Shown: positions 19,167 through 46,599, counted from the stretch's first letter. The stretch is 64,000 bases of DNA from an uncultured Gammaproteobacteria bacterium (GCA_964512625.1 CAZEKG010000004.1:9223-73222), one strand, 5' to 3'. Numbers and translations: made by a program. The notes: generated from the sequence alone by a model not told the origin.

Positions 19167-19973
19167 TTAACTGCCAAAAGTCATGAAGTTGGAGCTTTCA
19201 TACCTTTTAACAGCTCGGTAGAATATCTTAATCGATAAAATAAACCAAAAGACAGTCAAAGCTGCTATTAACAAAAATTTGAGCTCTGAAATATTCCTTA
19301 CAGCTTCTACGGGCAAGGCCCCGATCAAAAGAGATGGAATTAAAAAAATAAAAATAAATCTCATAACACCTTGAAAAGCTCCTCCATGAAAAATCGAAGG
19401 AGTCAAAAATAATTCAAACAGCCCGGAAGACACGGAATTGGCATCCATAAAAAAGAAACTGATCGAAAAAACCGCAATGACTATCGATAAGAATGTTATC
19501 GTAGTCATAATAATCAACGCCAGCATCATTAATAATTGAATCAAGTCCATTCTAATCAAAACAGCATAAACAGCTAACGAAGCAACGCCAAAAACGATAT
19601 CACCGACCGCCGAAGAACTGAATGCGGAGGTAGCAACTCTTAATAAAATATTTTTGGGCGACAACATAAAACGATCAAAGGATCCTGACGCGACATAATC
19701 CGGCAGTTTACGGACTCCTATCGCTACCGAAAAAACCAAACCGTAGGAAAGAGCGCCGAAGCCTAACAAACCGACAATATCAGCCGCCGTCCAGCCGCCG
19801 ATTACTCCCACTGATTTGACAAAAAATACCCAGAGCAGAACAAAAGCCGAGTTATTGATAGCCATGCCAATCACATTCATTAAAAAGCTAGTGCGAAGCT
19901 CAGCGCTACTTTGAATATTCTTCTTTATCGCATACCAAGCGAAATATAATTCCTTAAACATATTAACCGCCAT
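19167..19973 (-). CDS. ABC-2 family transporter permease
   Basis: Polytopic membrane protein downstream of an ABC ATPase. 11-nt overlap with the next permease. Confidence 0.6.
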   Translation of the reverse strand: MAVNMFKELYFAWYAIKKNIQSSAELRTSFLMNVIGMAINNSAFVLLWVFFVKSVGVIGGWTAADIVGLLGFGALSYGLVFSVAIGVRKLPDYVASGSFDRFMLSPKNILLRVATSAFSSSAVGDIVFGVASLAVYAVLIRMDLIQLLMMLALIIMTTITFLSIVIAVFSISFFFMDANSVSSGLFELFLTPSIFHGGAFQGVMRFIFIFLIPSLLIGALPVEAVRNISELKFLLIAALTVFWFILSIKIFYRAVKRYESSNFMTFGS

Positions 19974-20763
19974 TAATAGATACTTTTTCTTTAGCCCTGG
20001 AGAAAATAAAAATCATCCCTGAAAGCAGAACCGCAATCCAGAACCATTGGATACTTAACAGCCGATACCAATTCCCAGACCAGGATCCATAAACCGTATG
20101 CGTAATGAACTGAGAAGCGCCAAACGGACTGTAAAGCGACAGCTTATACATAATAGGAGGGAAAAGCGCAATAGGCAAATAGGATCCGCCCAAAATCATA
20201 ACCGACTTGTCGATGATCCAAAACAAGGGGTTTATATCCTCTATCCAAAAAGCCATTAAACCTACTATGGTATACAAGATTAAAGACAGGAGCATGGCGC
20301 CCAAAAAAGTCATGGCTAAGGTGGGAATGAAAATAACCAGCTTCATAGTAGCTGGAAACCCGACAGCTAATGATAAAATCAAGGTTCCTACCACTGTTGC
20401 TACTAAAAAAGAATAGAGTCCCGATCCTATTTGCCACCAAAAACGATAACTAAGATATGAGACCGGCTTACTGAATAATACTTCCACATTGCCCGATTGG
20501 ACATCCTGCATAATAAGCCTAGAAATATCCCTCAGCCTTAAAGTGGAAAAAGCGAAATAGAAAAAAATACTCCAGGCCACAAAAATATATTCCGTGCCAT
20601 TAACCGCTCCTCCGTTAAGATTAAAAACATACCAGTAAATAATCAATAACACTCCGCAACGCGCTACAATAATAACCGTATCCAAGATTAATCGTCCCGG
20701 ATATTGAATTCTATCTCTAATTAGAATGCTTAAAATTTTTCTAGCCAGCTTCATTCTTTTCAT
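19963..20763 (-). CDS. ABC-2 family transporter permease
   Basis: Polytopic membrane protein that overlaps the ATPase gene. Confidence 0.6.
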
Positions 20764-21730
20764 ATATATGTCGAATAACCGTCTCTAAGTCAGCATCGTA
20801 AACATCAATATCCTCGACCTCGAACAACTCCAGTAGTTGCTTCAAAGCTTCTTTAACGCTCACCTTATTAATATCGACCACGACTGTAATCTTATTGTCG
20901 CACTTTTCCCGATAACTCAAACCAGCTAACAACTTCGGGAATTTCTCAAACCTAGACATTGGAACCAAATCGACATACTTTTCATAAATAAATGTCTTAG
21001 CCAGGTCCTCAGTTAGCAAATCTTTCACTAAAACGCCATGGTTGATGATAATAGTCCGATTGCAAAGAGACTCAATATCGCCGACATCATGGGAAGTTAA
21101 GAAAATAGTAGTTTTTTCTTCCTTATTTATCCTCAGCAGTAAATCCCTTAAAGATTTTTTAGCCACCACATCCAGGCCAATCGTCGGCTCGTCTAAAAGA
21201 ATTAGTTGAGGTTTATGAATTAGAGAGGCAGCCACTTCGGCGCGCATCCTTTGGCCTAAAGACAGCTTGCGCACCGGCTGATCAATGAATGAACCTAAAT
21301 CAAAAATTTCCGTCAACTCCTCTAAGCGCTGTTTTATCTGGGACTCGCTCAAATCATACATTACGCCAAAAAACTCCAACGAATCAGTCAATGGCAGATT
21401 AGGTAGAAGCTGAGAACGTTGGCCAAAGACCGTACCGATTTTATAAGCCAGTTTTTTGCGATCTTTGACTGGATCGAGACCTAAAACGTTAGCGCTGCCA
21501 GAAGTCGGGTGCAATATCCCCGTTAACATCTTTATAGTTGTAGACTTTCCAGCACCGTTAGGCCCGATAAAGGCTATGCGTTCTCCCTCGTCAACTGTAA
21601 AAGAGATATCATTAACGGCTGTTAACTCCTTGATTTCCGGAGCAAAAAGGTTCTTTAGCCAACCAGCCTGCTGTCTTTTAATGGGGAAAGTGAATTTTTT
21701 AGACAAGCCTTTGACCGTTATTGATTTCAT
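20741..21730 (-). CDS. ABC transporter ATP-binding protein
   Basis: Walker [10 protein letters not shown], signature LSLGQRMR, Walker B LILLDEPT. The start was set at MKSITVKGL. The longer ORF begins at a non-ATG codon. Confidence 0.85.
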
Positions 21731-21880
21731 AAGTGTTTTTAGGATATATTTATATATTTTACATCCGAAGGAAGGTTTTAGCAATTAGTATCCAGCTTAA
21801 ATTTCAAAGCCCGGCCTCTAATGACCGGGCTTGTCTCTGTTACGTAGCAAGTTACGTAACAATCATTTTTATTGCCAATT

Positions 21881-35284: not shown

Positions 35285-35295
35285 ATAAGCATAAA

Positions 35296-35327
35296 AAAAT
35301 CATCCGTTTTACAACAGATGATTTTTT
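35296..35327. terminator. bidirectional terminator
   Basis: aaaAATCATCcgttttacaacaGATGATTtttt. Confidence 0.5.
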
Positions 35328-35345: not shown

Positions 35346-35756
35346 TTAGCCAGCAGTTGCTATAACGATATTATCAATAACGAACTTGGTAATACCGTAA
35401 GAAGTCATGATAATAACGACGCCGATAATAGCATTGATAATCAGTTTTTTTGCTTTATCAACTTTGCCGGTATCGCCACCAGCCGTCATCCATTGGAAGC
35501 CCGCCCAAATAATTAGTAGGACAAAGACAATGCCTAGAAAGCCTAGGATTACTTCAACTACTTTACCAATGAGTTGAGGTAAAGTTTCAGCAGAAGCTCC
35601 GCCAAGAGAACTAAGACCGGTATTATCTAGATTACTATTTATACTTCCAGAAACATCGACTTGAGTCGCTGCCAAAACTAAACTTGGCAAGATAAATACC
35701 AGCATAAATAGAACTGGCAATACTCTAACCGCTAACTTTTTCACTTTTTTCATCAT
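35346..35756 (-). CDS. secreted TrbC/VirB2-like pilin paralog 1
   Basis: Signal peptide plus the conserved core IWAGFQWMTAGGDTGKVDKAKKLIINAIIGVVIIMTSYGIT (two TM segments around WMTAGGD). The start was set at MKKVKKLAV. Confidence 0.6.
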   Translation of the reverse strand: MMKKVKKLAVRVLPVLFMLVFILPSLVLAATQVDVSGSINSNLDNTGLSSLGGASAETLPQLIGKVVEVILGFLGIVFVLLIIWAGFQWMTAGGDTGKVDKAKKLIINAIIGVVIIMTSYGITKFVIDNIVIATAG

Positions 35757-35790
35757 ATTTTTTTTATTTAATTTCACTAAATTTAATTTT

Positions 35791-36255
35791 CTAAATTGTT
35801 CCATCAGCGGCAGTCGGAAGAGGAGCAGTCGGCGTAGAGGCGCCCGGAGCTTTCATAGCATCATTAATAGACTTAATAACGAAAGTCGTTATTCCGTAAG
35901 ACATCATGATAATTATTAGACCAATAACGGCATTAAGAATAAGGGTTTTAGACTTTCCGACTTTACCAGTATCGCCTCCCGCTGTCATCCATTGGAAGCC
36001 CGCCCAGATAATTAGAAGTATAAAAACAATGCCAAGGAAAGCGAGGATTTTCCCAATAATATCTCCAACTAAATAAGGTAAATTCAGCTTTTCGCCCCCC
36101 AACTCCTTGAGATTGGTACTGCCCATATTGTTCTTAATATTGGTCAAGATCTTACCATCGGCGGCTAAAGACTGAGAAGATAAAAGAAAAGAAAAAGAAA
36201 AAAACAAAACCGCTATCGTCAATATCAATAATATTTTCTTTCTTTTTTCTTTCAT
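35791..36255 (-). CDS. TrbC/VirB2-like pilin paralog 2
   Basis: Signal peptide. IWAGFQWMTAGGDTGKVGKSKTLILNAVIGLIIIM. Confidence 0.6.
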   Translation of the reverse strand: MKEKRKKILLILTIAVLFFSFSFLLSSQSLAADGKILTNIKNNMGSTNLKELGGEKLNLPYLVGDIIGKILAFLGIVFILLIIWAGFQWMTAGGDTGKVGKSKTLILNAVIGLIIIMMSYGITTFVIKSINDAMKAPGASTPTAPLPTAADGTI

Positions 36256-36272
36256 ATTAAATAAATTGCTAA

Positions 36273-36689
36273 TTATTTAGGAGAAACAGCTCCTGGAGAT
36301 GAAGTCGCCGCACTGCCAATAACATCAATTACGAAATAAGTCAGGCCATAAGAAGCAAGAATAATGACTAGCCCAATAACTGCATTAATCAATAAAGTCT
36401 TAGACTTTCCGACTTTACCAGTATCGCCTCCCGCTGTCATCCATTGGAAGCCCGCCCAGATAACTAAGATTACAAAAACTACTCCGAGAAAGCCAAGCAA
36501 AGTAGCGACAATATTACCAATAAAGGTAGCGAGGCCGGCGCTATTACCTTGAGCTCCACCCAAAGAAACAAGGCCCGTATTTTTTAAATTTTTCATTGTC
36601 TCAGACGGTGCCGCTAAGGCGAAAATTGGGGACAACAAGAAAAAAACTAATAAAGAAACTGAAAATAATTTTATAGTATTTTTTTTCAT
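36273..36689 (-). CDS. TrbC/VirB2-like pilin paralog 3
   Basis: Signal peptide. IWAGFQWMTAGGDTGKVGKSKTLLINAVIGLVIIL. Confidence 0.6.
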   Translation of the reverse strand: MKKNTIKLFSVSLLVFFLLSPIFALAAPSETMKNLKNTGLVSLGGAQGNSAGLATFIGNIVATLLGFLGVVFVILVIWAGFQWMTAGGDTGKVGKSKTLLINAVIGLVIILASYGLTYFVIDVIGSAATSSPGAVSPK

Positions 36690-36697
36690 AAATCTAA

Positions 36698-37072
36698 CTA
36701 TTCCGTTATACCGACAAGGCTTAAAACTAAGGTAGTTATACCGTAAGAAACCATGACCAGTATCAAGCCGATAACCGCGTTAATCATAATCTCCTTAGCT
36801 CTTTTTACTTTTGCCGTATCTCCCCCGGCCGTGCCCCAGGTAAAGCCGGCCCAGATAACTAAAACAATCATTATAACGCCGATAAAACCTATGATTGAAG
36901 TTACCATGACTCCAACTAGGCTCGGAAGATCAGAAGAAGCGCCGGTTTTCAAACTTTCCGGGACTGCATTCCCCAATCTCGTCCTAGCATCACTAGTAGT
37001 AGCGATGGCTTCCTGACTAAAAGCTAAAAAAGCTAAAAAAACTAGAGTTAATTTTGTTTTCAAGTTTTTCAT
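36698..37072 (-). CDS. TrbC/VirB2-like pilin paralog 4
   Basis: Signal peptide. IWAGFTWGTAGGDTAKVKRAKEIMINAVIGLILVM. Confidence 0.55.
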   Translation of the reverse strand: MKNLKTKLTLVFLAFLAFSQEAIATTSDARTRLGNAVPESLKTGASSDLPSLVGVMVTSIIGFIGVIMIVLVIWAGFTWGTAGGDTAKVKRAKEIMINAVIGLILVMVSYGITTLVLSLVGITE

Positions 37073-37120
37073 AATTAGAATCAGGAGGGACGGACGAATC
37101 CGTCCCTCAATGAATCAATA

Positions 37121-37495
37121 TTAACCGTTGGTAATACCTTGAAGATTAGTAATAACGAAACTGGCAATTGCGTAAGCACTGAAAATAATAACCAAACCGA
37201 TAATACCGGAGATGATTAATTTCTTAGCCTTCTCAACTTTAGATTCGTCGCCAACCGCTGTCATCCAAATGAAACCGCCCCAAAGGACGATTAAAACGGC
37301 AAGAATGCCCAAGAAGCTTAGAACGATGCCGACTAAGCCTTGGATGGTCTCTTTTAGATCATTGTTGCCAAGACCGAATTGAGCGTTTTCCAAATCAACA
37401 TTAACCTGAGCGCTAGTCATTAAAGGCAATGCCATAAGAGAAACTAAGGCCATGCTTAAAACGGCAGCTCCTACTTTTTTCTTTGTGATTTTCAT
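37121..37495 (-). CDS. TrbC/VirB2-like pilin paralog 5
   Basis: Signal peptide. LWGGFIWMTAVGDESKVEKAKKLIISGIIGLVIIF. Strong RBS GGAAGGGAGGTGAA. Confidence 0.55.
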   Translation of the reverse strand: MKITKKKVGAAVLSMALVSLMALPLMTSAQVNVDLENAQFGLGNNDLKETIQGLVGIVLSFLGILAVLIVLWGGFIWMTAVGDESKVEKAKKLIISGIIGLVIIFSAYAIASFVITNLQGITNG

Positions 37496-37601
37496 TTATT
37501 CACCTCCCTTCCTGGCTAATTAAATAATGTTATATTTAACCGCCCTTAATTTATTATACTTATAATTTAGCAAACTTTGCGACTTTAGACAACAATAAAA
37601 C

Positions 37602-37940
37602 CTATGCTCCAATAGCTTGAAGAACAAAGCTGACAATGGCATAGGAACTGAAAACGAAAAATAACCCTAAAACTGCCCAAATCATCATCTCCTTGCCTTT
37701 CTTAATCTTACTAGAGTCACCATAAGACATCATCCAGGTCAATCCCCCGTAAACAAAAGCGACAAGAGCTAAAACGCCGGTTAATCCAAGAGCAGCTGTG
37801 GTCGCATTCTTAACCACCGTCTCGATACTAGCAGCCTCTCCTAGTGGATTTAGAAGTTGCGTCGGTTCTTGAGCTAAAACAACTACCGGTAAAATAAAAA
37901 CTACTGCCTGTATAGCGAGGATTGATAATCTTTTTTTCAT
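37602..37940 (-). CDS. TrbC/VirB2-like pilin paralog 6
   Basis: Signal peptide. VYGGLTWMMSYGDSSKIKKGKEMMIWAVLGLFFVF. Confidence 0.5.
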   Translation of the reverse strand: MKKRLSILAIQAVVFILPVVVLAQEPTQLLNPLGEAASIETVVKNATTAALGLTGVLALVAFVYGGLTWMMSYGDSSKIKKGKEMMIWAVLGLFFVFSSYAIVSFVLQAIGA

Positions 37941-37972
37941 ACTATTTTCCTTAATAAAGAATTAACTTTAGT

Positions 37973-38422
37973 TTATTCGGTTTTCCCCGGACATTGGCTC
38001 CAATTACTACCTTGACCGGTTTTTAAAATACTGGATAGTTTTGAATAAGAATCACTAACTCCGCCACCCACTAAGGCTAAGACAACTGTATTGATAATCG
38101 TCCAAGCGAAGAAGATAATACAAATCCCGACCGTAGCGGCGATTAAAGTATTCTTACCCCATTGATAACGGCTCGAATTGCCATAAGCTGTAATCATAAT
38201 CATACCGCCCCAAATAAACATCAAGATTCCAAGGACTCCGGAAAGCCCAACTAATATATCGGAAGCATTAGTAAAAATTTTAAGGAATTCACAAGGAGTA
38301 CAGATGCCTGTGTTTATACATGTGATGCCGTCTAAAAGATTATTAGCAGCCCTAACCTCGGAAACTCTAAAAAGAGAGAAAAGAGCAAATGATAAAAAAG
38401 TTATGGCTAAATATTTTTTCAT
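37973..38422 (-). CDS. divergent Cys-rich pilin-like paralog 7
   Basis: Signal peptide, a Cys cluster CINTGICTPC, then a two-TM hairpin IWGGMIMITAYGNSS...IAATVGICIIFFAW. ATGA overlap with the SBP gene. Confidence 0.45.
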   Translation of the reverse strand: MKKYLAITFLSFALFSLFRVSEVRAANNLLDGITCINTGICTPCEFLKIFTNASDILVGLSGVLGILMFIWGGMIMITAYGNSSRYQWGKNTLIAATVGICIIFFAWTIINTVVLALVGGGVSDSYSKLSSILKTGQGSNWSQCPGKTE

Positions 38423-39816
38423 TGCGTCGTTATTGGTTTGACTAAAGTCTGATTGATAACCTGCATCGCTGTATCAATAATAGCTTTAAACTCTTTTTCA
38501 TTTTGAGAAATTAAAGCGTCATCAATCATTTTCTTAAGCGCGCTTTCGGCGGCTGGTAAATCATAACCGCTATACCAGTTATCGGCTGTTAGGATTTCTG
38601 AAGCCGGAGCATTCATATTTTCATCTTCAAGTTGAGATGCAATTAAAGATTTTAAAGCTGTCGGCCGTTTCGCGACTTTTAGGAATTTCTGAGCCTGTTC
38701 TTTTTCAGTCGCAAAAACCAAGAAGTCCCACGCCGCATCGGAATTAGCCGTTTTCTTAGAAACAGTTTCCAGCCAATAGTTCGCAAAGTTAACTTTATTG
38801 CCGGGTACCTGAGGAATTGGCGCTATACCAAGATTAAGTCTCGGCGCTTTGGCTTTAATCGTCGGCAAGTCGTAACTATAGCCGAAAACCATGCCAACTC
38901 GGCCAGCCATAAAAGCCTCCAAAGAATCGCCCATTTCCGCATTCCAAGTATAAGTACTCTTCGTCGGAGAAGCAAAATCAAGATAGAATTGGATAGCCTT
39001 TAAGCCTGGATTATAATCTTTGCGATTAGGATCGCCCTGCATGAAAGCGACTCCTCCATTAGGAAAAAGCATTGTGGCGCCGTTTTGCATCATCAAAACG
39101 GAGAGTAGATCGCTCGCTCGATTTATATTTTTTCCGGTTCCAATAGCCGCACCAGCTTGAACAATTTTATCTTCAGCATCAAACTTAACCATTTTTTCAA
39201 CCGCTTTTTGGAAATCTTCCCAAGTCTCGGGGACTTGAGCGATACCATTCTGATTTAAGATGTCTTTATTGTAAAAAAGAATCAATGTATCCAAAGATAG
39301 AGGCAAACCGTAAACTTTATTATCAAGGATAACATTCTTGGCGACCACATCAGCGAAGTTCGCTTTTATTTCCCGAACCGTCGGAGAATTTTTCGTTCTT
39401 AATTCGTAAGCGATTTCTTTTTTAATGCCGCCCTTCTCGTATTGATAAGCGAGAGTTATTTGAGCCGGCATAGGAGCGATCTTAGTTTGGTATTTCTTTA
39501 GCCAGCCCTCGGGAATCGAAAACATATCCGGACCGCGATCCTCGGCTAAGGCATTCAATAATTCCTTTTCATACTCTTCGTAACGGAATTTGCGATAATT
39601 TATTTTTATGTTCGGATGCAAAGCGCGGTAAGCGGCGATAATCTCGGTAAAGGCATCATCATCTTCCCAAACGCGCCAATAATTAAGCTCGATCGGTTTC
39701 ATTTTTTCCTGAACATCTTTGCCCGGATTTTTACAACCAAAACCGGAAGTGGCGACGAAAGCTAAAAGTAAAAACAAGGTTGAGAACCGAGTTATGTTTT
39801 TCTTAGAAATTTTCAT
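38419..39816 (-). CDS. ABC transporter extracellular solute-binding protein (family 1), signal peptide/lipoprotein-like
   Basis: ~465 aa with SBP_bac_1-type periplasmic sugar-binding architecture. N-terminal signal with Cys. No cognate permease or ATPase adjacent. Confidence 0.65.
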   Translation of the reverse strand: MKISKKNITRFSTLFLLLAFVATSGFGCKNPGKDVQEKMKPIELNYWRVWEDDDAFTEIIAAYRALHPNIKINYRKFRYEEYEKELLNALAEDRGPDMFSIPEGWLKKYQTKIAPMPAQITLAYQYEKGGIKKEIAYELRTKNSPTVREIKANFADVVAKNVILDNKVYGLPLSLDTLILFYNKDILNQNGIAQVPETWEDFQKAVEKMVKFDAEDKIVQAGAAIGTGKNINRASDLLSVLMMQNGATMLFPNGGVAFMQGDPNRKDYNPGLKAIQFYLDFASPTKSTYTWNAEMGDSLEAFMAGRVGMVFGYSYDLPTIKAKAPRLNLGIAPIPQVPGNKVNFANYWLETVSKKTANSDAAWDFLVFATEKEQAQKFLKVAKRPTALKSLIASQLEDENMNAPASEILTADNWYSGYDLPAAESALKKMIDDALISQNEKEFKAIIDTAMQVINQTLVKPITTQ

Positions 39817-40158
39817 GAAGAGAGAATTTATCTTTACATAAATTATAACATATTTTTATGATTCGAGATAAGGGCTATTGTGTATAATTAATAACTTATA
39901 ATATGTAACTAGTAACAAGTAAATACAAATCCACTTAAACTGAGAGCTACTTAAAACTACAAGTCCCCAGTTGCTAGTTACTAGTCCCAAATATTTCAGG
40001 TTAATAGTCCTTAATATTCTAATTAAATTTCCAGTCTATATTTCCTATTCCCAATTATAAGCCTATAACCCTCTTCCACTAATAATTTAATCATTAAATA
40101 ATATAACAGTTGTTATTATCTAAATTTAGCCTTTTTGACTAATTTTAGCCAATTGCTA

Positions 40159-40187
40159 TTGACAAACTTTTTATTATATGCTATAAT
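40159..40187 (+). promoter_or_regulatory. consensus sigma70 promoter (TTGACA-17 nt-TATAAT)
   Basis: Perfect hexamers with optimal spacing, ~150 nt upstream of the lipoprotein gene. Confidence 0.55.
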
Positions 40188-40335
40188 GATATGTTCGTAA
40201 GTAGAACGACTTGAGTCTCCAATCTTAGCTAAAAACCTGTCAAGAGCTTTTAAGTTACTTTAGCCTATTTTAGGTAAGATTGGGGACTTGAGTGAATCAA
40301 AATCAACTGGGCTACAAGCCCAAGGAGAAGCGACC

Positions 40336-40836
40336 ATGTTGAAACGCTCTTTCATCGCCATTTTTGCTCTAACCATCGCCCTGACTCTTTCCGGCTGCGG
40401 CGGGAAAAAAATGGACCAAACGGAACTATATTACTTCCAATCGGCCAGGTATCTCCTGGATAAGGGAGTGATCAGTTCCGACGACCTGGCCAAGTCGGCC
40501 ATCAAGGATCCGGACTTTCAACAACGGATCAATCGGGAGATTGTGCCTTTTATCGCGCAAGGACTCCCGAAGCCGACGACTGCCCCCCAACCCCCGGCGG
40601 AGGAGACTGCCAAGTCCTCGAAGGAGTTGGAAGAATTCAAAAAAGCCGTTACCGAAAGCAGTGAGAGCTTTAAGAAGCTCGTCACTGAAAGCGGTGAAAG
40701 CTTTAGGAAGCAGGCGGAGGAAGTTTCCGAGAAGCTATCGTGTAAAATCGAACGTTTCGACGAGACTTACCGATCCTGGCTTTATCGCCAGCCCAACCCG
40801 CCACTGACACTTCCAACCCCTCCGGGCTCCTCATAA
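40336..40836 (+). CDS. lipoprotein with Pro/Glu-rich and repeated KKAVTESSESFKKLVTESGESFRK segment
   Basis: RBS AAGGAG 8 nt before the ATG. Signal with lipobox LTLSGC. Confidence 0.5.
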   Translation: MLKRSFIAIFALTIALTLSGCGGKKMDQTELYYFQSARYLLDKGVISSDDLAKSAIKDPDFQQRINREIVPFIAQGLPKPTTAPQPPAEETAKSSKELEEFKKAVTESSESFKKLVTESGESFRKQAEEVSEKLSCKIERFDETYRSWLYRQPNPPLTLPTPPGSS

Positions 40837-41114: not shown

Positions 41115-43463
41115 ATGGATAAAAATAATAATGGCGAAATACCAGCAAGAAGAGGGGACGTTGATCCAACGAGACAGGAACTTAACCAATTACTAAGCGA
41201 TGTAAATGCCCCAAATCCAGACGCAGCACTTCCAGGTGAGCGGCTGAACCACGCAGTAAAAGAAGGGGTTGATACCGTAAATGCTGAGACGGTAGAAGGA
41301 GTCATTACCGACACTAAAAGAGAGACTTTAGGTGAAATCTCTTTGGGAAGTGATGCCGTAAGCGATGCTACCAAAGGACTACCAAAAGATATAACAGCTC
41401 CTTTAGTAATAGAGGCAGATGAAGCGGCGGCGATCTTATCGGCCGGGCTAAGACAAGAAGCTGAAACACTAAGAGACCATAAGAATAATATAGAAGACAA
41501 CGCCCAACCTAATAATCCAGCTGTTTTTAAAGAAAATAAAGAGGGAGGAGATTCAATTAAATTCGTAAACGACCTTAAAACAAATATACCAATACATACG
41601 GCCAAAGAAATACTTTATGATTTAGCAGCTAGAGATTTTATAACCTTTAATGATGAAGTAAAACTAAGAAGAACCTTAGATTCATTTGAAAATTCTGAAC
41701 AAACTGGCCCTGATTTATTTAAAATTATCAATAACATCAAAGAATTAAAGAAAAACAATAATGATTCCCCACTTACTGTATCAAGAAAAACTGCGGGGGA
41801 GATATTAGATTCTTTAGTGGACTCTCAACCAGAAGTATTTGATGGACAAAAAATCGAAAGATTACAAGAAGAAATAAGGTCTTTTTATGAAAGTAAAAAA
41901 GAGAAACCTGATGAAATATCTCTAAAAATACTTTTTAAAATTATTGAAGACTCTATTAATAATACAGCGGATAAATCCCCTTTAGTCGCTCCAGATCTCA
42001 TTACCCCTAAACCAACATCAACACAAGGAGTTGAAACCGACTCAGGAGATGACTGGCATTATCGAAAACCAACTCCGGTAGAGCCTGAGGATGAAGATAA
42101 TGAAACTTCAGTTAATCCAGAGCCTGTCACTCCTGAAACAACACCAGCAAATGAACCCTCCTCAGAACCCATTATAGAACCAACACCCTCAACCCCGGAA
42201 CCTGCTAGTCCCTCACCATCTCCAGAGCCTGTCACTCCTGAAACAACACCAGCAAATGAACCCTCCTCAGAACCCATTATAGAACCAACACCCTCAACCC
42301 CAGAACCTACTAGAACAGAAACTCCTCCGCAAGCCTTAGAAATTCCCGATCCATACGAGTTTGACGGTATAATAAAAACCAAATACCGAGACATTAAAAA
42401 TTGGTTCGATAGGAACCTTTCCGTAGGCTTCGGCGAAGGCAAAGAACATAGGACTTCCAACAGGTTTTTTAAATCCATCGCTAATTTTTGGGATAATAAA
42501 TGGTTTAACCGCCATGATAAAAAATCTGCCGCCCTTGAAGCCAGGCAAGATTCCATAACTAACCAAGTTAACCGCCTTAAAGCCCAAATAAGCGCTCGTG
42601 AAGCCCGTTTAGCCGGCAATCCTTCTAATTCAGAAAGAAGAAAACTGGAAAGAGAATTGAGAAAATATGAAGACCTGCTATTACCCTTAGAAAGAAAACA
42701 AGAAAAACTAGCCACTAAACTGGGTGATTTTGACCGTGTTAAGGAAAAGCATCATGAGAGAGTAGCGGCGAGATGCGAAAGTATAAGCTCCGCCATAAAA
42801 GAAAAAATGTCGGAGAATCTTGAGCTTATCAATGATAAAAAATTAGACCTCTCCAAAAGAGAAGCTGATATCCAAACAGCTAAAGATACTCTAGATACTT
42901 GCAAAAGCGCTTTATTAGAAATAAAAAGGCAATACCGCAGTGCCGACCCATTAACCAGGCCGGAACTTAAGGCCAATATAAGCGCCATAGAAGAAAAAAT
43001 TAAAGAACAATCGGACGAGCTTAAAGAAAAATCAAAGGAATACCGAGCTATAAGCAAACAGCTAAATAGACTAGCAAAAAGAACCAACCCCTGGATAGAT
43101 TTAGCGACTAATTACGAAAGAATGGCTGATCGGACAGCTCCTTATTCCTCAAGAGATCGAAGACCTAATGATACTATGTCCGAAACAATTACTCCGACTA
43201 GGCCTTCAGGTTACGAAGCCTCCTCAGAGTCTAATCTAGAAATTAGGGATAACGAGCCAGTCAAGATTGACGCCTATTTAGCAATTTGGAATGCCTTTAA
43301 TACTGATATTCCAATACTTAGAGAAAGCTTAAGCCTAGGAAGAGAAAAATCAATTCCTATCTCACGACTAGAAAATATAATTAGAAGTAATAATCCTTCA
43401 GCAGAAGGTCTAGATAGGCGCTTTCAGGCCTTAAGAAAAATTAAAACAATTAAAGACAACTAA
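41115..43463 (+). CDS. large (782 aa) hypothetical protein with a Pro/Thr/Glu-rich tandem-repeat linker and a C-terminal coiled-coil region
   Basis: No signal peptide. Central EPVTPETTPANEPSSEPIIEPTPSTPEP duplicated. C-terminal heptad-rich segment (LEARQDSITNQVNRLKAQISAREARL...). Confidence 0.5.
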   Translation: MDKNNNGEIPARRGDVDPTRQELNQLLSDVNAPNPDAALPGERLNHAVKEGVDTVNAETVEGVITDTKRETLGEISLGSDAVSDATKGLPKDITAPLVIEADEAAAILSAGLRQEAETLRDHKNNIEDNAQPNNPAVFKENKEGGDSIKFVNDLKTNIPIHTAKEILYDLAARDFITFNDEVKLRRTLDSFENSEQTGPDLFKIINNIKELKKNNNDSPLTVSRKTAGEILDSLVDSQPEVFDGQKIERLQEEIRSFYESKKEKPDEISLKILFKIIEDSINNTADKSPLVAPDLITPKPTSTQGVETDSGDDWHYRKPTPVEPEDEDNETSVNPEPVTPETTPANEPSSEPIIEPTPSTPEPASPSPSPEPVTPETTPANEPSSEPIIEPTPSTPEPTRTETPPQALEIPDPYEFDGIIKTKYRDIKNWFDRNLSVGFGEGKEHRTSNRFFKSIANFWDNKWFNRHDKKSAALEARQDSITNQVNRLKAQISAREARLAGNPSNSERRKLERELRKYEDLLLPLERKQEKLATKLGDFDRVKEKHHERVAARCESISSAIKEKMSENLELINDKKLDLSKREADIQTAKDTLDTCKSALLEIKRQYRSADPLTRPELKANISAIEEKIKEQSDELKEKSKEYRAISKQLNRLAKRTNPWIDLATNYERMADRTAPYSSRDRRPNDTMSETITPTRPSGYEASSESNLEIRDNEPVKIDAYLAIWNAFNTDIPILRESLSLGREKSIPISRLENIIRSNNPSAEGLDRRFQALRKIKTIKDN
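42121..42309 (+). repeat. tandem direct repeat (105 bp unit, ~1.8 copies) inside the large gene
   Basis: agcctgtcactcctgaaacaacaccagcaaatgaaccctcctcagaacccattatagaaccaacaccctcaacccc... is repeated almost identically from 42226. Confidence 0.85.
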
Positions 43464-43799: not shown

Positions 43800-44846
43800 C
43801 TAAACGATAACCGGCTCTTCCCGCTTCTTATTCCTTAGCCATTTAAAAATAATGAATGATAATAAAAATATCGGAACGGTAATCAAGATCGCCTTCGACT
43901 TCGGAAAAAAGTAAAAAAGCGTCAAATCGATAACAACCCAATGAAGTATATAAACATTCAAAGTCGCATCACCAAGAATCTTTAAAACCTTAAAAATTAT
44001 TTCTACCGCCCGGAATTTAATAAGCCCGATTAAATCATGAACCCCCATTAAAATAAACATTATGAAATAAGAAGCGAAAATATAATAAGGCCTAAGCGGA
44101 TACATATAACTCGTAAGATCGGTCGATTGTCCGGAAAACTTTAAAAACGCATACGAAACGAAGAATAAAACGCCGAATAAGGCCAGCCAGCGCTTATAAT
44201 GCTTCTGATACTCACTCAAGGCTAAGTAATAACCGAAGACGAAAGGCGCTAACCAATAAAGAATCGAGAAAGTCACATTATTCCTCGCATAAATAAAATC
44301 CGTCAGCGAATTGACCGGTAAAGGAATAAGATAGTTAATAATTAGAATCAAGCCGATAATTCCGAGTAAAACCGTTTTCGGATATTTTAATTTTTTAGTT
44401 ATCAAAATAAAAAGCGGCGAAATCAAGAAATACAAGCCGAGAGTCAAAATGATCGTAATCGGAACCGTAAAAGCTTTCAAGCTTAAGATATGGAAAGCGT
44501 CAAGAATATTCTTATCCTTGAATTGGAGAAAAAACGGCTCCTTATTAAAATCAAAAAAAGCCAGCTTAACTAAATTGTAAGCGAAAAAAATCGCAATTAA
44601 TCGCGTTCCCTTATAAGCTGTCTTCTTAAAGCCCTCGAGCCAGGTCCGTTTTTTAGCATAAGCAAGATAAATGACCGCGCCAAGATTAGAAAAGAAAAAT
44701 AAAACGCTCGGATAAAGCCATTGCTTGAAAAGCTGTTGTTCCGACGTAATCTTTAAGTTCGACCAATCAATTAAATGAATCGCAATGATAGCTAAAATGG
44801 CCAAACCGTTAATAAACGAAATGTAAGGATTCCTTTCTTTATTCAT
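43800..44846 (-). CDS. acyltransferase family 3 (OafA-like) membrane protein
   Basis: N-terminal RNPYISFINGLAILAIIAIHLID, typical of acyltransferase_3. ~10 TM segments. Confidence 0.55.
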   Translation of the reverse strand: MNKERNPYISFINGLAILAIIAIHLIDWSNLKITSEQQLFKQWLYPSVLFFFSNLGAVIYLAYAKKRTWLEGFKKTAYKGTRLIAIFFAYNLVKLAFFDFNKEPFFLQFKDKNILDAFHILSLKAFTVPITIILTLGLYFLISPLFILITKKLKYPKTVLLGIIGLILIINYLIPLPVNSLTDFIYARNNVTFSILYWLAPFVFGYYLALSEYQKHYKRWLALFGVLFFVSYAFLKFSGQSTDLTSYMYPLRPYYIFASYFIMFILMGVHDLIGLIKFRAVEIIFKVLKILGDATLNVYILHWVVIDLTLFYFFPKSKAILITVPIFLLSFIIFKWLRNKKREEPVIV

Positions 44847-46599
44847 TATTTTTTCCGTTAATTCTTTCTCCTATCTGTTGGCGCCACATAGCGTAATAAA
44901 GGCCTTTTTGCTCTAATAATTCCTCATGCTTTCCAGATTCAATAATTCTTCCTTTCTCAAGGACAAAAATCCGATCGGCGTGCATGACTGTTGAAAGACG
45001 ATGAGCAACCATAACGACAAGATGTTTCTTCTCTTTGGATATTTTCCTAATCGTTCCGGAGATTTCCTCTTCCGTTATCGAATCAAGCGCCGAAGTCGCC
45101 TCATCAAAAATTAAAAGCCGCGGCTTCCTTAAGAGCGCCCGAGCGATTGACAGCCGTTGCTTCTCGCCGCCGGAAACCTTTATACCGCCTTCGCCGATAG
45201 TCGTTTCTAAACCGTTAGCCGCTCGCTCTAAGAGGCTTTGTCCGGCCGCCGATTTCATCGCTTCCAAGCACTCCTCATCGCTAGCCTTAGGGCTAGCAAA
45301 AAGCAAGTTCTCTTTTATACTGCCGGCAAAAAGCTGGGTATCTTGGGAAACTAAGCCGATCTGCTTTTGCAATCCGGAAATATCAATCTCTTTGATATCC
45401 TGACCGTTAATCATGATCCGGCCGGTTTCACTGCGATACAAGCCGACTAAAAGCTTAATCAGCGTCGTCTTGCCCGAGCCAGAAGGGCCGACGAAAGCGA
45501 TCGTCTCCCCTATTTTCGCTTTAAAAGAAATCTCTTCAAGGGCTTTAACGGAGGCGGTTTGATGTTGGAAAGCGACCTGAGAGAATTCCAAGCCTTCCAG
45601 TTCGCCAATCAAAACCGGCGCTTCCGGAATCTTTTCTTTCGGCGTTTTCATGATATCGTCGAAGTTCTTTAAAGAAGCTTGAGTTTCACGATAGATATTA
45701 ATGATGTTGCCCATCTCTTGCAGTGGACCGAAAATGAAAAAGGAATAAACGAAAAGAGAAAAGAACTCGCCGAAAGATATTTTTTGGAAATAAATCAAAG
45801 CCAACATAAGGAACATAATCGTCGTTCGAAGAAAATTGACGGTCGTCCCCTGAATAAAGCTCAGCGTCCTGATATATTTTACTTTATTCAGCTCTAATCC
45901 CAGGATTTTTTCCGTCGTTAAGTTAAGGCGCTTGATTTCCTGATTAGCTAAGCCCAAGCTTTTAACTAACTCAACATTCCTTAGTGACTCAGTCGTCGCG
46001 CCAGCTAAAGCCGTCGTTTCCGACAAGATCTTTTTTTGCGCTTCCTTAATCCGCTTGCTTAAAATTGAACTCAGCCAGCCGATAACCGGCGCCGCAATGA
46101 AATAAATCGGAGCGATCAGCCAATAGACGGTAAAGGAATAAACTGTTACAAAGATGACGCCGACCAAAGAAGTGAAAAGGATATTAATGAAATTAGAAAT
46201 GAGACGCTCAATATCGCTGCGCGCTTTTTGGAGCTTACCGAGAGTCTCGCCACTGCGTTGATCCTCAAAAATCGCGTAAGGTAATTCAAGGGAATGTTTA
46301 ATGCCGTCAGTATAAATATTGGCGCCTACTTTTTGAGTTATAGTACTGATATAATAATCCTGAAAGCTCTTCGCGACTCGAGAAACAAAAGCTGCTCCGA
46401 CCGAAGCGCCAAGGAGCGTTAAAACGCCGGCAATGAATTGATTGAGCTGATACTGATTAAACTTCGAAATATAATTGTCGATTACCAAGCGAAAGATATA
46501 CGGATCAAGAAGAGAGAAGACCTGATTGACGGCCGCCAAAAAAAGAGCCAAGACAATCAGCTTCCAATATTTTTTTAAATAAGGCCAAAGTATTTTCAT
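44839..46599 (-). CDS. ABC exporter, fused permease/ATPase (MsbA-like)
   Basis: 6-TM N-terminal domain, Walker A GPSGSGKTT, signature LSGGEKQRLSIARAL, Walker B LLIFDEATSALD. Confidence 0.85.
   Translation of the reverse strand: MKILWPYLKKYWKLIVLALFLAAVNQVFSLLDPYIFRLVIDNYISKFNQYQLNQFIAGVLTLLGASVGAAFVSRVAKSFQDYYISTITQKVGANIYTDGIKHSLELPYAIFEDQRSGETLGKLQKARSDIERLISNFINILFTSLVGVIFVTVYSFTVYWLIAPIYFIAAPVIGWLSSILSKRIKEAQKKILSETTALAGATTESLRNVELVKSLGLANQEIKRLNLTTEKILGLELNKVKYIRTLSFIQGTTVNFLRTTIMFLMLALIYFQKISFGEFFSLFVYSFFIFGPLQEMGNIINIYRETQASLKNFDDIMKTPKEKIPEAPVLIGELEGLEFSQVAFQHQTASVKALEEISFKAKIGETIAFVGPSGSGKTTLIKLLVGLYRSETGRIMINGQDIKEIDISGLQKQIGLVSQDTQLFAGSIKENLLFASPKASDEECLEAMKSAAGQSLLERAANGLETTIGEGGIKVSGGEKQRLSIARALLRKPRLLIFDEATSALDSITEEEISGTIRKISKEKKHLVVMVAHRLSTVMHADRIFVLEKGRIIESGKHEELLEQKGLYYAMWRQQIGERINGKNNE

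Follow-up and report, generated by a model that had tools for sequence, protein, structure and literature searches.

A solute-binding-protein gene paired with a Cys-rich, VirB2-like pilin gene at the head of tandem pilin arrays in Patescibacteria-type genomes

Why would a gene for a solute-binding protein (SBP), with no transporter genes beside it, stand directly ahead of a run of pilin genes? The question is raised by a 64,000-nucleotide (nt) stretch of DNA (GCA_964512625.1, CAZEKG010000004.1:9223-73222), the whole of which is referred to here as the window. Eight adjacent minus-strand open reading frames (ORFs) occupy positions 35346-39816. The ORF list of the window contains all eight genes of the initial annotation, which described a 465-amino-acid (aa) SBP and seven minus-strand pilin-like genes, numbered here P7 to P1 from the SBP gene onwards. 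The reported ATGA coupling of the array to the SBP gene is located at the SBP/P7 junction, where stop and start codons overlap at 38419-38422. We somewhat favour the view that this operon encodes pilus subunits together with an SBP-fold lipoprotein that acts as their dedicated extracellular partner, as a receptor or adhesin.

A scan of the Genome Taxonomy Database (GTDB), with one genome per species, yields at least 507 SBP loci, and the best 80 were used. These species-representative loci and four loci with annotated contexts make up an 84-locus set in which the SBPs are 49-61% identical. In the annotated contexts of three SBP homologues, PF18895 genes lie directly 3' of the SBP gene. An ORF that matches the pilin profile lies directly 3' of the SBP gene, on the same strand, in 83 of the 84 loci, and the single exception has no DNA past the SBP gene. 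The two genes overlap in 12 of the 82 gaps measured (five by an exact ATGA); 57 gaps are 0-35 nt, 11 are 36-110 nt and two are longer. The SBP-pilin pairing outlasts the synteny around it by a wide margin: the neighbouring family that ranks next in conservation is present in 54 of the 84 loci, and no upstream neighbour in more than 48. The SBP gene and the array are contiguous, as in the window, in 19 loci. In 33 loci, the SBP gene and one pilin gene are followed by 2-5 kb of other genes and then by the remaining four to six pilin genes. The SBP gene and the first pilin gene therefore remain joined when the array splits.

The pairing extends to a distant SBP subfamily that is 35% identical to the window SBP and whose source is at least partly Portnoybacteria. 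A metagenome scan provided 80 loci of this subfamily, 70 of which have at least 420 nt downstream and can be evaluated. A same-strand pilin gene lies within 300 nt of the SBP gene in 69 of these 70. The usual operon contains a gene for a small S-adenosylmethionine (SAM) methyltransferase, the SBP gene and three pilin genes. It adjoins gyrA and has no permease, ATPase or VirB4 gene.

The features of the window locus are as follows, in the order in which the minus strand is read; E values and bit scores refer to profile matches.

39842-39850, minus strand: candidate extended -10 element TGTTATAAT, about 25 nt 5' of the SBP start, read from the sequence
38419-39816, minus strand: SBP, 465 aa, predicted lipoprotein with the family-1 solute-binding-protein fold; lipobox FGC at residues 26-28
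37973-38422, minus strand: P7, 149 aa, Cys-rich and longer, coupled to the SBP gene; PF18895 E 1.2e-10
37602-37940, minus strand: P6, 112 aa, the shortest; above both the PF18895 and the TrbC/VirB2 thresholds
37496-37601, minus strand: gap before P5, 106 nt, with ribosome-binding site GGAAGGGAGGTG at its end; possible internal promoter region
37121-37495, minus strand: P5, 124 aa, candidate major pilin; PF18895 E 7.2e-12, NF045849 43.4 bits
37078-37116, minus strand: GC-rich stem-loop between P5 and P4, core GAGGGACGGA-UUCG-UCCGUCCCUC, no U-tract; candidate attenuator or mRNA-stabilising element
36698-37072, minus strand: P4, 124 aa, separate orthogroup; PF18895 E 6.8e-8
36273-36689, minus strand: P3, 138 aa, member of the P1-P3 triplet; PF18895 E 4.6e-8, TrbC 28.4 bits
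35791-36255, minus strand: P2, 154 aa, member of the P1-P3 triplet, C-terminal tail rich in Pro, Ala and Thr; PF18895 26.7 bits
35346-35804, minus strand: P1, 152 aa, last in the array; PF18895 E 7.1e-13
35294-35327, minus strand: intrinsic terminator, 15-bp stem and U-tract, which ends the array and is shared with a convergent 532-aa gene

The pilin that is paired with the SBP is of a particular type. Of the 55 loci with at least four pilins, 52 have their best match to P7 in the first pilin that follows the SBP. Pilins in this first position have a median length of 150 aa, compared with 133 aa for the others, and 46% of them contain three or more Cys, compared with 5%. First pilins of the distant subfamily, with a median Cys count of four, are matched better by the position-1 profile than by the profile of other pilins, by a median of 28.5 bits (86% of cases). 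By these sequence comparisons, the P7 type is an ancient, SBP-linked pilin orthogroup of its own. P7 is also the divergent, Cys-rich member that had been noted at the upstream end of the array. It is 24% identical to P1 and has five Cys, at positions 35, 41, 44, 101 and 144. A search with P7 alone retrieves just six proteins, a result of its fast divergence and of the word filter.

The seven proteins are assigned to the pilins of type IV secretion systems (T4SSs) by profile. The hidden Markov model check proposed in the initial annotation places all seven above the gathering score of PF18895 (T4SS_pilin), at 26.7-48.9 bits against a cut-off of 26.6 (E 6e-6 to 7e-13). P2, at 26.7 bits, is marginal. 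Each protein exceeds the threshold independently, so the similarity is not due to chance. TrbC/VirB2 (PF04956, cut-off 27.9 bits) is the second-best family in five of the seven; P3 (28.4 bits) and P6 (31.5 bits) are above its cut-off, and P1, P5, P2, P7 and P4 score 14-26 bits. Only P5, at 43.4 bits, exceeds the 40-bit cut-off of NF045849, the NCBIfam model for Mbov_0395-family pilin-like conjugal transfer proteins; P1-P4 and P6 reach 27-37 bits, with no match for P7. A holin-like or other identity was considered for these proteins, and no such match is found in Pfam or NCBIfam. The condition that the initial annotation had set for rejecting a pilin identity therefore does not hold. A profile built from the seven pilins matches no other ORF in the window.

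The seven-way alignment agrees with the architecture described earlier, a signal peptide, a variable N-terminal part and a core of two transmembrane (TM) helices in every pilin. Each protein has a K-rich N-terminus and a hydrophobic Sec-type signal with AxA-like sites at its end. The mature part consists of a variable segment followed by a conserved two-helix core joined by a basic loop. The core motif IWAGFQWMTAGGDTGKV, which had been given for the whole array, is exact in P1-P3 and degenerate in P4-P7. In the AlphaFold2 model of P7 (predicted local distance difference test, pLDDT, 73), a signal helix at 2-17 precedes a helix hairpin at 43-78/83-118. Comparison of the pilin profile with sequences of PDB chains returns only noise (best E 0.09, a designed protein). 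The best Foldseek match of the P7 model in the PDB has an E value of 0.59, and the helical hairpin is too simple for a fold-level assignment to VirB2 or TraA.

Array pilins can be fused to additional surface domains, as seen at one metagenome locus (L143). Its P7-type pilin has a long Cys-rich C-terminal extension, in an ORF of about 300 aa, and in the pilin that comes next, about 280 aa of N-terminal extracellular sequence precede the pilin core.

The identification of the 465-aa protein as a family-1 SBP is borne out by both profiles and fold. It matches SBP_bac_8 (E 1.1e-30) and SBP_bac_1 (E 1.8e-27) in Pfam, and its AlphaFold2 model (pLDDT 90.6) has the two-lobe binding-protein fold. The top Foldseek matches are oligosaccharide receptors of ATP-binding cassette (ABC) importers, with 15-20% identity and E values down to 7e-25. 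The model superposes on GacH and on sophoro-, cello- and cyclo/malto-oligosaccharide binders, and the sequence-profile search is concordant. Residues F26-G27-C28 are invariant across 25 SBP homologues, and for this reason the SBP is likely to carry a lipoprotein anchor. In the 35%-identical subfamily, the anchor is either a lipobox or an N-terminal TM segment.

More than 2,000 SBP homologues have E values below 1e-10, and the best 120 are 50-61% identical. The named organisms among these 120 are Patescibacteria, for example Buchananbacteria and Falkowbacteria. A profile search gives 1,871 cluster representatives with E values up to 1e-30. The 35%-identical subfamily ranks lower, and one of its clusters is from Candidatus Portnoybacteria.

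Several observations concern the SBP proteins and the records in which they are found. Residues 119-143 of the SBP form a conserved beta-hairpin insertion, QITLAYQYEKGGIKKEIAYELRTKNS, in the AlphaFold2 model. This hairpin is specific to the ABY1 type and largely missing from the 35%-identical subfamily, and it is a candidate protein-protein interface on the basis of the model. Five family members (P0220, P0254, P0260, P0261 and P0276) are about 813-871 aa long and contain two profile-matching stretches, which suggests that they are tandem double-SBP proteins. Loci L007, L008, L010 and L012, and many others from GTDB representative metagenome-assembled genomes (MAGs), clearly have Patescibacteria gene content in records titled 'uncultured Gammaproteobacteria bacterium', and L026 is titled Bacillota. 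These MAG records are probably mislabelled. L017 has two copies of the SBP gene with five pilin genes, inverted as mirror images of each other within 15 kb, which is probably an artefact of a palindrome in the assembly.

All window ORFs of at least 200 aa and part of the shorter ones were covered by the Pfam scan, which leaves out about eight of 110-150 aa. Among the ORFs scanned, there is no BPD_transp_1-type permease or importer ATPase, and no VirB4, VirB6, VirD4 or relaxase. The window has just two ABC systems, a fused protein of the exporter type at 44839-46599 and an ABC-2 set at 19167-21784. The SBP is thus an orphan, as had been proposed, at the scale of the window and for the ORFs scanned. 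Nor is there a permease or ATPase within 6-10 kb among the conserved neighbours of the 84 and 80 related loci. The window is otherwise housekeeping chromosome, with Ile-, Thr-, Arg-, Tyr- and Trp-tRNA synthetases, RuvA/B, PGI, UDG, QueA and a Wzy/flippase. One tRNA-Ser is the sole RNA gene detected in it.

The pilin genes of the array are not recent copies of one another. In a neighbor-joining tree of the window and seven relatives, the P7, P6, P5 and P4 types form distinct clades. For example, P6 clades with the pilin in position 2 of L001, and P4 with those in position 3 of L012 and position 4 of L001. P1, P2 and P3 form a window-specific triplet, and its sister is the pilin that ends the L001 array. 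On this orthogroup analysis, the idea that the seven pilins all arose by recent tandem duplication is rejected. As judged from the sequences, the paralogs are old orthogroups that are kept in a fixed order across species, and only P1-P3 are a lineage-specific expansion. The graded divergence from paralog 1 to paralog 7 that had been described holds only roughly, with identities to P1 of 53, 57, 41, 42, 31 and 24% for P2 to P7.

Variation within the array is uneven. The alignment and gene-conversion check suggested in the initial annotation finds the mature N-terminal segment (7-50% aa identity among paralogs) to be more variable than the core (23-72%), and it finds a single identical tract. 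This tract, 64 nt in P2 and P3, lies inside cores that are 72% identical and suggests one local conversion event. No silent, truncated or promoterless donor copies are present in the array; all seven genes are complete and have signal peptides.

The P5 type is the best-conserved orthogroup (median core identity 0.42), and its gene is set apart on both sides. The 106-nt gap before P5 contains a strong ribosome-binding site and shows no RNA folding of significance (z 0.04). Ahead of P5-type orthologues, the median gap is 80 nt long, compared with 5 nt at other intra-array gaps. The stem-loop after P5 has a minimum free energy (MFE) of -22.2 kcal/mol and a z of -4.7, and 0 of 200 shuffled sequences are as stable. 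Of 53 gaps that follow P5-type orthologues (median length 70 nt, against 5 nt at other intra-array gaps), 74% fold with an energy of -10 kcal/mol or below, compared with 6% of 143 gaps elsewhere in the arrays. These hairpins vary in sequence but keep their position across species. At the end of the array, the terminator has an MFE of -21.5 kcal/mol and a z of -7.7. The array thus probably has an internal structure, marked by the gap and ribosome-binding site that precede P5 and the hairpin that follows. From this pattern, P5 is most likely the abundant major subunit, and the downstream genes would encode minor or variant subunits at lower levels.

A comparable arrangement is known from the pap chaperone-usher operon, in which the major-subunit gene is followed by a stable stem-loop that raises its expression over that of the downstream minor subunits. 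In both cases, the gene of the most abundant subunit, for which P5 is here a candidate, lies ahead of a stem-loop. The two systems differ in that their protein families and assembly pathways are unrelated, and for the hairpin here, a role is read only from where it lies and how it is conserved over 53 loci.

Two details of gene starts and promoters qualify the feature list. The annotated ORF of P1 (152 aa) begins within the 3' end of P2, with a 14-nt overlap. The true start of P1 is probably M17 or M18 (35756 or 35753), which would give a protein of about 135 aa, because the other six pilins start with MKK. With this start, the 14-nt overlap with P2 disappears. A sigma-70 promoter scan finds 17 sites, compared with 14.1 in shuffled sequence, which is no excess. 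Statements about promoters are therefore readings of the sequence only. The extended -10 element TGTTATAAT is not listed by the consensus scan because its -35 hexamer is weak.

Patescibacteria are already known from the literature to have tandem VirB2-like arrays, and as an array the one in the window is simply a further member of this described kind. A search of 3,035 Patescibacteria genomes with PF04956 and PF18895 found 441 arrays of 2-11 VirB2-like genes in 383 assemblies, with a mean identity of 25% and a maximum of 54% (Quinonero-Coronel et al. 2025, PMC12102498). In the same study, 1135 of 1948 assemblies have virB4 in the vicinity of a VirB2-like gene, some 40% of VirB2-like genes lie away from virB4, and host-range versatility is proposed for the arrays (PMC12102498). 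Southlakia epibionticum has an array within its T4SS cluster that was shown to be essential (Wang et al. 2023, PMC10633639). A 2025 review describes these systems as the first monoderm T4SSs with potential pili (PMC12857230). The earlier statement that such arrays are typical of episymbiotic, small-genome bacteria agrees with these three sources, none of which mentions a solute- or substrate-binding partner. The role of the T4SS-like system has been called completely unknown (PMC11665869), and no adhesin is identified for the Patescibacteria system in PMC12102498. In the searchable literature, outside which much subscription literature lies, neither a module of an SBP and a Cys-rich pilin nor the arrangement of major pilin and hairpin was found; one paper has terms for solute binding and for pilins or T4SSs, but in sentences with no connection to each other.

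The window array resembles the SEML1_0014-0019 array of Ca. Southlakia epibionticum ML1 and the 441 published arrays. All are tandem PF18895/TrbC-type pilins with signal peptides and low mutual identity, and all are chromosomal in a monoderm, reduced-genome epibiont lineage. With seven genes, the window array (core identity 20-58% in this comparison) is within the published range of 2-11. The Southlakia array differs in that it lies inside a VirB4/VirB6 cluster and has no family-1 SBP, whereas the window array is away from T4SS core genes and has an SBP-fold lipoprotein and a dedicated Cys-rich pilin in front. Arrays of T4SS VirB2 paralogs in Bartonella and Anaplasma are cited in PMC12102498. 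They share with the window the tandem amplification and divergence of pilin genes, with variation concentrated in exposed parts. Unlike the window array, with its deep ordered orthogroups and putative arrangement of major pilin and attenuator, they belong to diderm intracellular pathogens and are read as immune evasion or host adaptation.

SBP-fold proteins have been recruited to conjugation or T4SSs elsewhere without adjacent permease genes of their own. PrgZ/TraC is encoded on enterococcal pheromone plasmids, and PrgZ captures pheromone for the chromosomal Opp permease. ChvE of Agrobacterium binds sugars and signals to VirA, which induces the virB pilus operon. The two belong to other SBP families, PrgZ to family 5 as a peptide binder and ChvE to family 2 as a monosaccharide binder, and neither gene is known to share an operon with a pilin gene or to be coupled to one. 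The window SBP, in contrast, is of the family-1 oligosaccharide type and is obligately paired with one pilin orthogroup.

The mechanism that we propose for the operon has several steps. The organism is an ultra-small member of the Patescibacteria (CPR), similar to Buchananbacteria or Falkowbacteria, and the ATPase and channel genes of its T4SS-like system would lie elsewhere in the genome. The seven VirB2-like propilins would be exported by Sec and cleaved after the AxA-type sites. They would be stored in the membrane as two-helix hairpins, and a VirB4/VirB6 machine, as expected from the family, would extract and polymerise them. The array is not a set of interchangeable variants; it consists of P7, P6, P5, P4 and a terminal type triplicated as P3-P1. 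P5 would form the major subunit, and the genes beyond the stem-loop would be expressed at lower levels as minor or variant subunits. The SBP and P7 would form an extracellular accessory module, in which the SBP domain binds a glycan, present on the surface of the host or derived from it, and P7 connects the SBP with the filament or the filament base. The role of this pair would be that of a receptor or adhesin and not nutrient import through a cognate permease. A more specific form of this proposal is tentative and, on balance, doubtful: in Parcubacteria/ABY1-type lineages, the SBP and the P7-type pilin would be the module, an adhesin or receptor, by which the T4SS-like pilus of Patescibacteria recognises the host. 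The SBP would be a receptor of a transporter, co-opted as a structural partner of the pilus to bind glycan on the host surface, in a part like that of VirB5 or PrgB. To our knowledge, VirB5 and PrgB are lacking from Patescibacteria T4SS-like systems.

Several points weigh against a pilus with a receptor partner. No T4SS core genes are found within 10 kb of the module in the relatives examined, and because no core gene is nearby, the tie to a T4SS machine comes from family membership and the literature. We know of no observation of a T4SS pilus in Patescibacteria. The essential array of Southlakia has no SBP, so an SBP is not universally required. The invariant lipid anchor would place the SBP at the membrane or the pilus base, not at the pilus tip. 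The SBP fold is complete and highly conserved and has many invariant aromatic residues, which is equally expected of a true transport receptor, and its permease could be encoded elsewhere in the genome. The stem-loop after P5 has no U-tract.

There are other explanations. The SBP may be an ordinary receptor of an ABC importer for a host-derived oligosaccharide, with its permease and ATPase encoded elsewhere, that is co-regulated with the pilins during host attachment. Orphan SBPs with distant permeases are common in monoderms, and a lipobox or TM anchor is typical of monoderm SBPs. The full family-1 fold, closest to receptors for malto-, cello- and sophoro-oligosaccharides, and the very high conservation with its invariant aromatic residues would also be explained. 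However, co-regulation alone rarely keeps gene order this strict. One pilin orthogroup is adjacent, often with translational coupling, at about 150 loci and in two SBP subfamilies that are 35% identical; this adjacency outlasts other synteny, and no locus has a permease or ATPase within 6-10 kb. Since co-regulation leaves the fixed adjacency of the SBP to one orthogroup unexplained, the importer receptor is ranked below the receptor or adhesin partner and is considered unlikely. It is less probable still that the two-TM proteins form no filament and instead build a membrane complex with the SBP, an uptake channel or signalling device that is independent of a T4SS. Such a complex would fit the position of the module among housekeeping genes, away from T4SS core genes in both the window and the relatives, the lack of a solved pilin structure retrieved by sequence or fold, and a weak DctQ-like match of P1 (E 0.0035, below threshold). 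It does not account for seven of seven proteins above the curated T4SS_pilin threshold, for the homologous Southlakia array that is inside a T4SS cluster and essential together with it, or for the 1135 of 1948 assemblies with virB4 near a VirB2-like gene (PMC12102498).

Diversification of the array, antigenic or functional, was part of the initial annotation. An explanation by antigenic or host-range variation holds that the paralogs diversify their exposed N-terminal segments and swap sequence by gene conversion. The far greater variability of the mature N-terminal segment than of the core, the P2/P3 tract, the lineage-specific expansion of P1-P3 and the host-range versatility proposed in PMC12102498 are in its favour. 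Most paralogs, however, are ancient and kept in fixed order across species whose SBPs are just 50-60% identical. All copies are complete with start sites, promoterless or silent cassettes are lacking, and there is only one short identical tract. In addition, no recombinase or invertible element is found among the window ORFs scanned. The antigenic explanation is thus very improbable. Functional diversification, the other half of the earlier suggestion, fits better because the orthogroups are ancient, their order is fixed and every copy is full-length.

Few functions have been shown to be indispensable for a cultivated Patescibacterium to live as an epibiont, and the T4SS-like system with its pilin array is one of them. 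For this essential apparatus of unknown function, the SBP-P7 pair is a defined candidate partner, and it overturns nothing that is established. A protein with a recognisable ligand-binding fold, tied genetically to a single pilin orthogroup in distant lineages, is a testable handle, and its ligand could reveal the target of the pilus on the host. The ordered orthogroups and the P5 hairpin favour reading such arrays as a heteromeric set of major and minor subunits, not as a pool of antigenic variants.

In the relatives, a SAM methyltransferase is a third recurrent partner of the SBP-pilin module. A class-I enzyme of about 182 aa (for example L104:5444-5992) is encoded directly 5' of the SBP gene in 72 of 80 Portnoybacteria-type loci. 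Its homologue (L002:12508-13059; 35% identity, E 9e-38) lies two genes past the P7-type pilin gene in 46 of 84 ABY1-type loci. The 64-kb window contains no homologues of the small SAM methyltransferase, RodZ-like protein or GT2 of the relatives.

The gene convergent with P1 (33686-35284, plus strand) encodes a 532-aa protein with multiple TM segments. It has no match in Pfam, NCBIfam or PDB sequences, or by family profile. Homologues are present within 7 kb of the SBP gene in 41 of the 84 related loci and often adjoin GT2. In an alignment of 25 sequences, residues D42, D44, H48, D79, E275, W276 and R332 are invariant. In Southlakia, a separate pilin gene, SEML1_0024, is convergent with SEML1_0023, whose product is annotated by structure as an STT3/PglB/AglB-like glycosyltransferase. 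By analogy, glycosylation of the pilins by the 532-aa neighbour as a GT-C enzyme is a possibility.

Two further genes lie on the plus strand beyond the SBP gene. A 782-aa protein (41115-43463) has no family match and contains a near-perfect tandem duplication of a unit of about 40 aa that is rich in Pro, Thr and Glu (…VTPETTPANEPSSEPIIEPTPSTPEP…). Its C-terminal half is coiled-coil-like by sequence, with weak, sub-threshold Pfam matches to small helical families. A perfect sigma-70 consensus promoter at 40159-40187 (TTGACA, 17 nt, TATAAT, with an upstream TG) precedes a putative 182-aa lipoprotein gene (LSGCGG; 40288-40836) that is divergent from the SBP operon.

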